From the sequence record OQ578995.1: a stretch of 48,173 bases of DNA. One strand, written 5' to 3'. The stretch comes from Staphylococcus phage phiST9-C. Positions 24,268 to 25,499 of the stretch are shown one piece after another. Below the pieces are notes generated by a model. That model made no database searches. It worked only from the letters and a program-made list of their open reading frames with translations, and had not been told where the DNA came from. A program made the position numbers and the translations under genes. How positions within the stretch are numbered: the stretch's first letter is position 1; every line of letters begins with the position of its first letter.

Positions 24268-25431
24268 ATGCCGACATTATATGAATTAAAACAATCCTTA
24301 GGTATGATTGGACAACAATTAAAAAATAAAAATGATGAATTGAGTCAGAAAGCAACAGATCCAAATATTGATATGGAAGACATCAAACAACTAGAAACAG
24401 AAAAAGCAGGTTTACAACAAAGATTCAACATTGTTGAAAGACAAGTGCAAGACATTGAAGAGAAAGAAAAAGCGAAAGTTAAAGACACAGGAGAAGCTTA
24501 TCAGTCTTTAAATGATAATGAGAAGATGGTTAAAGCTAAGGCAGAGTTTTATCGTCACGCGATTTTACCAAATGAATTTGAAAAACCTTCAATGGAGGCA
24601 CAACGTTTATTACATGCTTTACCAACAGGTAATGATTCAGGTGGAGATAAGCTCTTACCAAAAACACTTTCTAAAGAAATTGTTTCAGAACCATTTGCTA
24701 AAAACCAATTACGTGAAAAAGCGCGTTTAACTAATATTAAAGGTTTAGAAATTCCTAGAGTTTCTTATACTTTAGATGACGACGACTTTATCACTGACGT
24801 AGAGACTGCTAAGGAATTAAAATTAAAAGGAGATACGGTTAAGTTCGCTACTAATAAATTTAAAGTGTTTGCTGCAATTTCCGATACTGTTATTCACGGT
24901 TCAGATGTAGAATTGGTAAATTGGGTTGAAAACGCATTACAATCTGGTTTGGCAGCTAAAGAGCGTAAAGATGCCTTAGCAGTAAGTCCTAAATCTGGAT
25001 TAGAACACATGTCATTTTATAATGGATCTGTTAAAGAAGTTGAAGGAGCAGACATGTATGATGCTATTATTAACGCTTTAGCAGATTTACATGAAGATTA
25101 TCGTGATAACGCAACAATTTATATGCGATATGCTGATTATGTCAAAATTATTAGTGTTCTTTCAAATGGAACAACAAATTTCTTTGACACACCAGCAGAA
25201 AAAGTATTTGGCAAACCAGTAGTATTTACAGATGCAGCAGTTAAGCCTATTGTTGGAGATTTCAATTATTTTGGAATTAACTATGATGGCACAACTTATG
25301 ACACTGATAAAGATGTTAAAAAAGGCGAATATTTGTTTGTATTAACAGCATGGTATGATCAGCAACGTACATTAGACAGTGCATTCAGAATTGCAAAAGC
25401 AAAAGAAAATACAGGTCCATTACCCAGCTAA
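24268..25431 (+). CDS. Major capsid protein (HK97 fold)
   Basis: 387 aa after the protease. RBS AGGAGGAAATGAA then ATG. An N-terminal coiled-coil delta-like region is present. Confidence 0.8.
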   Translation: MPTLYELKQSLGMIGQQLKNKNDELSQKATDPNIDMEDIKQLETEKAGLQQRFNIVERQVQDIEEKEKAKVKDTGEAYQSLNDNEKMVKAKAEFYRHAILPNEFEKPSMEAQRLLHALPTGNDSGGDKLLPKTLSKEIVSEPFAKNQLREKARLTNIKGLEIPRVSYTLDDDDFITDVETAKELKLKGDTVKFATNKFKVFAAISDTVIHGSDVELVNWVENALQSGLAAKERKDALAVSPKSGLEHMSFYNGSVKEVEGADMYDAIINALADLHEDYRDNATIYMRYADYVKIISVLSNGTTNFFDTPAEKVFGKPVVFTDAAVKPIVGDFNYFGINYDGTTYDTDKDVKKGEYLFVLTAWYDQQRTLDSAFRIAKAKENTGPLPS

Positions 25432-25489
25432 GCCCCAAAAGGTTAATGTAACAGCTAAGGCTAAATCAGCTGTAATATCAGCCGAATAG
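25427..25489 (+). other. Conserved +1-frame extension (21 codons: AKPQKVNVTAKAKSAVISAE) overlapping and following the major capsid stop
   Basis: A paralogous element occurs at the 3' end of the major tail gene, with substitutions that are synonymous or conservative in the +1 frame. Confidence 0.5.
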
Positions 25490-25499
25490 GGGTGATGAA

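Follow-up and report, generated by a model that had tools for sequence, protein, structure and literature searches.

Organization of the gene ends

We analyzed 48,173 nucleotides (nt) of Staphylococcus phage phiST9-C (sequence record OQ578995.1; this whole stretch is referred to as the window) and describe a repeated element at the 3' ends of its major capsid and major tail protein genes, where a +1 ribosomal frameshift would append a 21-residue extension to each of the two proteins. The window's capsid-to-catcher genes, shift sites, extensions and hairpins described below are all in the positive strand. The major capsid protein gene (24223..25431; Pfam Phage_capsid PF05065, E 6.5e-15) has 96% identity with its counterparts in phiSLT, phage 47 and IPLA35 and is followed by a head-tail adaptor gene (25500..25778) whose homologue is annotated 'head-tail adaptor Ad1' in NC_011344. 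The major tail (tail tube) protein gene (26951..27592; Pfam Phage_TTP_1, E 1.4e-13) is followed by an open reading frame (ORF) encoding 151 residues (27684..28139, named here ORF151), and an intrinsic-terminator-like site at 28146..28178 closes this two-gene unit. The structural module is 96% identical to that of the Triavirus group (phiSLT, 47, 3A, IPLA35 and phi2958PVL). In RefSeq no slippage is annotated at the homologous sites and neither recoded product is listed.

A reading of this DNA made from the sequence alone (the sequence-only reading) had pointed to 25417-25492 and 27578-27653 as paralogous segments. The positions were right: the two segments, referred to as copies A and B, are identical at 58 of 76 bases without gaps, as compared with a background of 20.0±3.9 identities and a maximum of 38 when the copy A 76-mer was placed along the remainder of the window. 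An ungapped alignment anchored on the gene stops showed that the likeness starts about 15 nt 5' of each stop and ends sharply at TAGGGG. Each segment spans a gene stop and contains an open +1 frame of 21 codons. As the same reading had noticed and the sequence bears out, both 0 frames end L-P-S-stop, both +1 frames share one TAG stop and the third frame of copy A is closed. Both genes end TTA_CCC_AGC_TAA (UUA_CCC_AGC_UAA in the mRNA; site A at 25420..25431, with CCC at 25423-25425; site B at 27581..27592, with CCC at 27584-27586), and the +1 frames read PAKPQKVNVTAKAKSAVISAE (copy A, 25424..25489) and PANPQNVEVSVNSKSATVSAE (copy B, 27585..27650), each followed by TAG. The earlier count of 15 differing codons, 5 of them synonymous, had to be corrected to 13 and 4. 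The 17 nucleotide differences between the copies fall at codon positions 1, 2 and 3 of the +1 frame in the proportion 5/2/10, and the divergence between them corresponds to a dS of 0.51. A covariance model of the related copies (see below) matched two sites in the window, at 83 and 78 bits, with the next match at E 0.9; both window copies were part of the training alignment and their high scores are expected by construction, the informative result being the absence of further matches.

Related copies and selection on the +1 frame

Related copies were collected by four routes: similarity of the capsid protein across species, similarity to the downstream 151-residue protein, the DNA pattern of the shift site, and the DNA pattern of the 3' end of the element. 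When all the loci were scanned with a peptide pattern, they yielded 65 distinct versions, 61 of which need a +1 shift (frameshift-type) and 4 of which are in frame with the upstream gene. Because the two DNA-pattern routes impose parts of the motif, the 30 versions from the window or from loci found by protein similarity were tracked apart; all 30 showed the same invariants as the full set. Every one of the 65 versions has exactly 21 codons and a stop, in a search whose expression demanded an open +1 frame; the loci reached by protein similarity (L001, L003 and L140-L151) had this frame open in all cases. In the 0 frame, a stop lies directly 3' of CCC (NNN_CCC_TAA or NNN_CCC_TAG) in 47 of the 61 frameshift-type copies, neither window site being among them, and the remaining 14 have CCC_AGY_TAA or CCC_TCA_TAR.

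Parsimony on a tree of the 61 frameshift-type copies gave 65, 78 and 203 steps at +1-frame codon positions 1, 2 and 3, respectively (chi-square p ~1e-22), and the mean dN/dS of the +1 frame, calculated by the NG86 method, was ~0.31. An RNA stem cannot generate a three-base periodicity; the codon-position bias and the dN/dS show that translation of the +1 frame is selected. The sequence-only reading had argued for purifying selection on a +1 product from the two window copies; the comparison of many copies supports a +1 frame translated under such selection. Replacements per residue alternated along the peptide. They numbered 0 at V7, 9 at position 8, 7 at V9 and 16 at position 10, and further along 6 at A16, 12 at position 17, 2 at I18, 7 at position 19 and 2 at A20. 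Conservation of V7, V9, A16, I18 and A20 in this i, i+2 order is the pattern expected of β-strands with one conserved face. The 21-residue peptide is also kept where neither frameshift nor hairpin is present (L152, L162, L167, P0021 and P0025).

Shift site and hairpin

CCC is the rarest Pro codon in the structural genes of this phage (6 of 4653 codons, 5% of the Pro codons), and CCA, which overlaps it in the +1 frame, is the commonest. The capsid and tail genes have one CCC each, at the penultimate codon. Among the frameshift-type copies, the P-site CCC is invariant (61/61), as are CCC at Pro4 of the peptide and the terminal TAGGGG; the codon 5' of the shift codon is mostly ACA, as in the cps gene of Listeria phage PSA.

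RNAalifold, run on the ungapped copies, predicted one long hairpin in which CCCC:GGGG encloses a 14-bp helix, beginning 7 nt 3' of the shift codon CCC in every copy. Predicted hairpin A spans 25433..25492 (CCCC at 25433-36 pairing with GGGG at 25489-92; inner helix 25442-56 with 25468-82), with a minimum free energy of -21.6 kcal/mol and z -4.0; predicted hairpin B spans 27594..27653 (CCCC at 27594-97, GGGG at 27650-53), with -15.6 kcal/mol and z -2.85. In an alignment of 54 sequences, 91% of the hairpin cells were standard pairs, as compared with 79% after shuffling and 37-50% in slid controls. Compensatory cells numbered 124, against 55±5 in shuffled alignments (none of 500 shuffles reached 124) and 6-38 in slid ones, and the covariation score was 0.359, against 0.174 and 0.04-0.13, respectively. 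Double-sided, compensatory changes were found at 9 hairpin pairs. Since the GGGG arm begins with the G of the +1 stop codon, that stop is TAG in every copy.

The 4 in-frame copies have no CCC at Pro4, end in GAATAA in place of GAATAGGGG and lack TAGGGG, and the three distinct sequences folded (L153 equals L152 except for one base) showed no significant structure, with z of +0.6, -0.9 and +1.2. The hairpin thus tracks the need for a frameshift and not the peptide. No Rfam family matched at E ≤ 1 between 25300 and 27800. A terminator scan called terminator-like sites at 26903-26923 and 28146-28168 and neither of the hairpins; the window copies have no U-tract. The Shine-Dalgarno sequence of the adaptor gene (AGGGGTGA, 25488-25495, 7 nt 5' of the ATG at 25500) sits within the 3' arm of hairpin A, and therefore adaptor initiation may need ribosomes that open the hairpin, a form of translational coupling.

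The module also has a canonical -1 slippery heptamer, G_GGA_AAG, at 28520-28526, close to where the gene for the tail assembly chaperone ends (ORF 28197..28547). The -1 frame is open across the chaperone stop to 28747 and joins a 52-residue ORF (28589..28747) that lies just 5' of the tape measure gene. Frameshifting here is of the usual G/GT type, and it brings the recoding sites of the module to three.

Masses of virion proteins

MALDI-TOF mass spectra of purified staphylococcal phages showed peaks common to six Triavirus phages at m/z 7936, 11,645, 12,598, 15,871, 23,295, 25,208 and 30,373, of which the authors assigned 23,295 to the major tail protein and 15,871 to an immunoglobulin (Ig)-like protein, and no others (PMC5923470). 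With the sequences of phage 47, and with the initial Met removed, we calculated 23,294.7 Da for the 0-frame tail protein and 15,871.2 Da for the Ig-like protein. The +1 tail product, shifted at CCC and without Met, has a calculated mass of 25,204.7 Da; were the ribosome to shift after AGC, one codon further on, the product would be 16 Da heavier and its agreement with 25,208 poorer. Considering any start and stop combination in all frames of phage 47, no other product came within ±20 Da of that peak. The mass match supports the assignment, made here, of the 25,208 Da peak to the +1 tail product. The predicted +1 junction peptides are ENTGPLPAKPQK for the capsid and …SLGSLPANPQNVEVSVNSK and VFVGYTDSGEHSDDSLGSLPANPQNVEVSVNSK for the tail protein, and the predicted C-terminal peptides are SAVISAE and SATVSAE. 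Intact masses calculated for the window's own proteins are 23,288.8 Da (0 frame) and 25,214.8 Da (+1) for the tail protein and ~30,401 and ~32,336 Da for the mature capsid protein; shifting at CCC would read …LP-AN… in the tail product, and shifting after AGC …LPS-N…, with 25,230.8 Da.

The 30,373 peak fits a cleaved capsid protein: in phage 47 (NC_007054, 4046-5209, the homologue of 24223..25431), the 0-frame product cleaved after …SMEAQR has a calculated mass of 30,374.8 Da, which suggests that this is the prohead-protease maturation site. The equivalent position in the window capsid is after residue 128, between KPSMEAQR and LLHALPTG.

A programmed +1 shift near CCC-AGC-TAA had been proposed in the sequence-only reading, and five lines of evidence now agree with it, i.e., selection on the +1 frame, the rare CCC, the covarying hairpin, a layout in common with the proven +1 sites of Bacillus phage SPP1 and Listeria phage PSA (see below) and the 25,208 peak. 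We regard +1 frameshifting as very probable at the tail site and as probable, with somewhat less assurance, at the capsid site. Two other origins of a +1 product were considered and set aside. An independent start of the +1 ORF would have a GTG in copy A only (25379), copy B having a stop three codons upstream, and transcriptional slippage would lack a long homopolymer before the 0-frame stop.

The extension as part of an FN3 domain

In distant homologues of the capsid protein, the site ACA_CCC_TAA is followed by varying amounts of a fibronectin type III (FN3) domain in the +1 frame. The +1 extension of L014 is a complete FN3 domain (Pfam fn3 positions 2-82, 42 bits). In L006 and L015 the extensions have about 22 residues, ending …SWD-stop and …DWDT-stop, and an ORF that begins …TYNVYRDG… comes next, with its own Shine-Dalgarno sequence and start codon. 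When the extension was joined to this ORF, the fn3 match grew from positions 29-83 to 2-83 in L006 (29.5 to 41.5 bits) and from 41-81 to 2-81 in L015 (21.5 to 33.5 bits). A covariance model trained solely with staphylococcal copies coincided exactly with the capsid stops of L014 (E 6e-4), L006 (0.01), L015 (0.015) and L002 (0.05). In the last of these, a Staphylococcus americanisciuri prophage (7132-7248), the capsid gene ends CCC_AGC_TAA and continues ACCCCC…TAGGGGG; the +1 peptide, PAKPPKIERNEENLEVSNSNEEVLDVPEV followed by a stop, is longer and unrelated, and the predicted hairpin is weak (z -1.3), i.e., the peptide has been replaced while the RNA landmarks persist.

The 21-residue window extension covers fn3 profile positions ~2-28 and not the whole domain. 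Pfam matched ORF151 with Big_2 alone (residues 67-140). From residue 4, ORF151 is collinear with the downstream ORF of L006 (E 3e-13), and the extension plus the N-terminus of ORF151 aligned end to end with the FN3 set in hhalign (95% probability, E 2e-8, columns 1-78). We are highly confident that the extension, called the tag from here on, corresponds by this profile-profile match to FN3 strands A and B, and homology shows that ORF151, called the catcher, corresponds to strands C-G, without A-B, in residues 1-66 followed by Big_2. A tag formed by the first two strands of an FN3 domain, with the other strands in a separately encoded virion protein, is probably a docking tag. Phages of Paenibacillus and Lederbergia and Kayvirus phages show the same split layout.

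Residues 1-66 of ORF151, searched exhaustively, gave 78 cluster representatives; the half-domain lies at the extreme N-terminus of a short protein in 55 of them and forms internal repeats of large proteins in 23. P0027, the one internal-repeat protein that was read, has a tag-like A-B joined to strand C (PDPIVEAKITVIPGSKTANITD…LKLYDGDG…), and by this arrangement is an unsplit relative. AlphaFold2 models of ORF151 (predicted local distance difference test, pLDDT, 96) and of P0025 (pLDDT 90) formed the C-C'-F-G sheet and left the strand-E segment without a sheet partner, as expected if strand B is missing. A sequence search of PDB with ORF151 returned Big_2 matches only, with the N-terminal half-domain uncovered. 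Translational bypass or read-through joining the tag to ORF151 was rejected: tag and catcher share a frame in some phages (the window and L003) and not in others (L001 and L015), and no catcher lacks a Shine-Dalgarno sequence and a start codon of its own.

Gene context of tags and catchers

Of 25 cases of a tagged tail gene, 23 have a catcher gene after it, whereas a tagged capsid gene is followed by a catcher in none of 12, the adaptor gene taking that place; one catcher for two tagged genes is therefore what is usually found. Several divergent Phage_capsid proteins carry the cassette, as do Phage_TTP_1 tail-tube proteins. Some catchers, such as P0021 and P0025, have a C-terminal in-frame tag of their own. 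In Triavirus virions the catcher homologue is present at 15,871 Da, beside the 25,208 peak assigned above to the tagged tail protein.

A Kayvirus-like locus (L152, 2323-3746, identical to G15) contains a three-gene chain from tag to catcher: a 215-residue protein with an in-frame terminal tag, a 173-residue protein with catcher, Big_2 and tag, and a 75-residue protein with the catcher only. Annotations along Kayvirus chains vary between 'Ig-like', 'tail morphogenetic' and 'major tail protein', and all three proteins are abundant in purified virions (PMC5923470). The masses calculated for the L152 chain are off the phage K values by 11-31 Da, differences that we take as strain differences. In another locus (L190, 4001-5869; protein P0087, in the 143-kb staphylococcal phage MT080597), the catcher half-domain is fused to a GDSL/SGNH lipase-like domain in a protein of 622 residues. 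The gene lies by itself behind a terminator and has no tag immediately upstream; its product could be an enzyme that is recruited by a tag from another part of the genome. In L143, a 68-residue ORF (2795-3001) ending …HQITIRWSDE-stop is inserted after the tagged tail gene and before the catcher gene.

Proposed mechanism and alternative explanations

The explanation of the whole that seems to us reasonably probable is that each copy serves as a portable cassette for recoding, located where a highly expressed structural gene ends, and yields a tag that docks into a catcher. A fraction of the ribosomes with tRNA-Pro on the rare CCC would slip +1 to CCA (CCU in most relatives), helped by slow decoding of the next codon or by the nearby stop and by the ~60-nt hairpin 7 nt downstream. 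The shifted ribosomes would read 21 codons through the hairpin and stop at the UAG whose G belongs to the CCCC:GGGG stem. The 21 residues would provide FN3 β-strands A and B, and the ORF at 27684..28139 would supply strands C-G together with Big_2. Tags on some capsid and tail-tube subunits would then insert into the incomplete FN3 domain of the catcher by strand complementation. Once head and tail are assembled, this would anchor an Ig-like decoration on both, at a number of sites governed by how often ribosomes shift. Docking by strand complementation, taken as a step of its own, appears to us slightly favored.

Taken more broadly, the data could describe a natural split-FN3 'tag and catcher' system in staphylococcal phages and their Bacillales relatives, a generalization to which we give an even chance. 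Here the tag would be dosed by frameshifting (or be in frame, as in Kayvirus) and completed in trans by cargo-bearing proteins that start at FN3 strand C; the cargo can consist of Big_2 arrays, of further tags allowing chains, and possibly of enzymes. One small cassette could therefore let interchangeable modules be added, after assembly, to different structural proteins. As for the history, a stop in the B-C loop most likely divided a complete, SPP1-like extension in two. As a matter of speculation, the split may have been advantageous in that a short tag disturbs assembly of capsid and tube less, and in that one catcher could serve two structural proteins.

Several observations weigh against the proposed docking cassette. 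At both window sites the A-site codon is AGC and the stop comes one codon later, a departure from the commonest, CCC_UAA type. The contrast by which the hairpin occurs only where a frameshift is needed comes from 3-4 independent in-frame lineages. The match at 25,208 is one of intact mass only, and a mature +1 capsid protein (predicted ~32.3 kDa, ~32,310) is not among the published shared peaks. The half-domain of ORF151 was modeled with pLDDT 92-97 in the absence of strands A-B and may be stable alone, and in the AlphaFold2 model of P0025 the C-terminal tag of the chain itself was disordered and undocked, an outcome for which domain geometry barring an intramolecular fit may be responsible. 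Finally, the staphylococcal tag has Ala at the usual position of the FN3 core Trp.

This replacement of the core Trp also speaks for the main rival explanation, which accepts the frameshift and takes the 21-residue extension as a functionless relic of an SPP1-type FN3 domain, kept for the hairpin and the Shine-Dalgarno sequence, with the Ig-like protein binding the virion in some other way. The hairpin covers nearly the whole extension and its arms are strongly constrained, the GGGG arm of copy A doubles as the Shine-Dalgarno sequence of the adaptor gene, the extension of PSA tsh is likewise short (24 residues) and not FN3, and ORF151 is modeled confidently without the tag. However, an RNA stem could not produce the three-fold excess of changes at third positions together with the i, i+2 pattern of amino acids; moreover, in-frame copies without the hairpin keep the peptide as well, and distant lineages show the split at the same B-C loop, in each case with the C-G half encoded next to a tag. 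We consider the relic explanation unlikely. It is far less probable still that there is no frameshift at all and that the hairpin at the mRNA 3' end acts as a partial terminator, a stabilizer or a translational-coupling device, the open +1 frame being incidental. Such a role would suit a hairpin that lies after highly expressed genes and before genes whose products are needed in smaller amounts, with a T-run directly after GGGG in many related tail copies and a sequestered Shine-Dalgarno sequence in copy A, but the terminator scan was silent on hairpins of which the window copies have no U-tract, and codon-position bias and dN/dS show that +1 translation is selected. It would also leave unexplained the invariant rare CCC and the fixed 7-nt spacing, in an element that is homologous to proven frameshift sites and for which a peak at 25,208 Da fits the +1 product. 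Lastly, the identity of 58 of 76 bases within one genome might suggest a recent duplication or gene conversion without selected function. This can practically be discarded, given that in many phages the tags of capsid and of tail type fall into two distinct, old sets of lineages, that copies A and B differ by a dS of 0.51 and that several capsid and tail-tube families without relation to one another carry the cassette.

Significance

The two recoding sites add two unannotated, predicted products to a clinically important group of phages, and they explain a published virion peak (25,208) that previously had no assignment. The module is common to phages converting for Panton-Valentine leukocidin (phiSLT and phi2958PVL) and to this apparently hlb-converting S. 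aureus prophage. With regard to the latter, positions 1-20000 of the window gave matches of ~90-92% to lysogeny and replication modules of various S. aureus phages over only about a quarter of this left part, and one of the matching records lists beta-hemolysin beside the integrase; this fits a mosaic hlb-converting (Sa3int-type) S. aureus prophage, as the sequence-only reading had assumed. The conserved RNA element, made of a rare CCC, a 7-nt spacer and a hairpin closed by CCCC/GGGG, is common to the proven +1 sites of SPP1 and PSA and provides a searchable signature of +1 recoding in phages of Firmicutes. If the docking is true, it would be a natural protein-fragment complementation for virion decoration, in which a 21-residue tag that capsid and tail assembly tolerate recruits an Ig-like module after assembly; it would account for how a 16-kDa protein without any other obvious anchor stays on virions, and it would offer a ready, non-disruptive display handle for the engineering of staphylococcal phages.

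Comparison with known systems

Programmed +1 recoding as such is known from SPP1 and PSA; what is new here is the extension as one half of a split FN3 domain completed by a separate virion protein. The hairpin, the relationship with SPP1 and the identification of the tag as strands A-B completed by the downstream gene all go beyond the sequence-only reading. A literature search that left most subscription journals outside found no earlier description of a +1 frameshift in staphylococcal capsid or tail genes, and no split FN3 or donor-strand decoration in phages.

At the end of the SPP1 tail-tube gene, ribosomes shift from a rare CCC onto the overlapping common Pro codon (Auzat et al. 2008, summarized in PMC6316719). 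The shift occurs at CCC_UAA and adds an FN3 domain of 87 residues to give gp17.1*, the ratio of gp17.1 to gp17.1* being ~3:1 with both forms in the virion (PMC6316719). The SPP1 sequence reads GCU_CCC_UAA_UGC_GCCCC…GGGGC, with a 6-nt spacer, and folded here into a hairpin of -25 kcal/mol (z -2.9). SPP1 thus resembles the window in its rare CCC, short spacer and CCCC…GGGG hairpin, the hairpin being a prediction made here and not in the paper. Its +1 frame (PNAPQNLTYTATTDSVTVKWD…; in a longer reading PNAPQNLTYTATTDSVTVKWDAVEGADSYNVYRG…) starts P-N-A-P-Q-N-L, corresponding to FN3 strand A, and GAA-GGG-GC of the 3' arm encodes E-G-A of the FN3 B-C loop and aligns with the staphylococcal GAA-TAG-GGG. 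The SPP1 extension matched the joined L006 sequence with E 9e-12 and the joined staphylococcal sequence with E 0.01. SPP1 was not among the matches of the staphylococcal covariance model at E ≤ 1, and the relationship rests for this reason on direct inspection and folding. The differences are that SPP1 appends the whole 87-residue domain, whereas the window appends the first 21 residues (A-B) and encodes the rest in a separate gene; that the shift site is CCC_UAA in SPP1 and CCC_AGC_UAA in the window; and that SPP1 has the device on the tail tube only, the window on capsid and tail.

In Listeria phages, +1 frameshifting at a rare CCC has been described for Cps and Tsh of PSA and for Tsh of A118 and A500 (Zimmer 2003; Dorscht 2009; reviewed in PMC5009743). 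The analogy with PSA drawn in the sequence-only reading was apt, since both PSA genes have a +1 site at a rare CCC, and capsid and tail genes of one phage use this shift in PSA as in the window. PSA cps, ACA_CCC_UCC_GAA_A-CCCC[13]GGGG, also agrees with the window in having a sense codon (UCC) after CCC and a downstream structure, and PSA tsh, ACA_CCC_UGA_AACU-CCCC…AUAGGGG, in the short extension (~24 residues). The spacer is 7 nt in both, and slippage products are annotated in PSA. The covariance model gave weak matches to the PSA sites, with E values of 0.31 and 0.56. Unlike those of the window, the PSA extensions are not FN3-like, the tsh tail being acidic (ETPLELPLENESGIGDDSEETTQD), and no downstream half-domain partner was seen in PSA. 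The +1 extension of A118 tsh is longer, ~88 residues, and runs through an ORF annotated 'Ig-like domain-containing protein'.

Ig-like and FN3 domains attached to phage structural proteins by programmed frameshifts are known more generally (Fraser et al. 2006, discussed in PMC5009743). As proposed for the window, recoding places a surface-exposed decoration of the Ig superfamily on a fraction of the capsid or tail subunits; in those cases the whole domain is in the extension, whereas in the window the domain is split over two polypeptides and one partner gene would serve two structural proteins. Chaperone-usher pilus subunits and engineered split Ig-like domains such as SpyTag/SpyCatcher are examples of an Ig-like β-sandwich that lacks one or more strands and is completed by a short peptide from another chain. 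These strand-complementation systems donate one strand, and the window would putatively donate two (A-B). There is no evidence of an isopeptide bond in the window system; its setting is the virion, and the supply of tag would be set by the frameshift.

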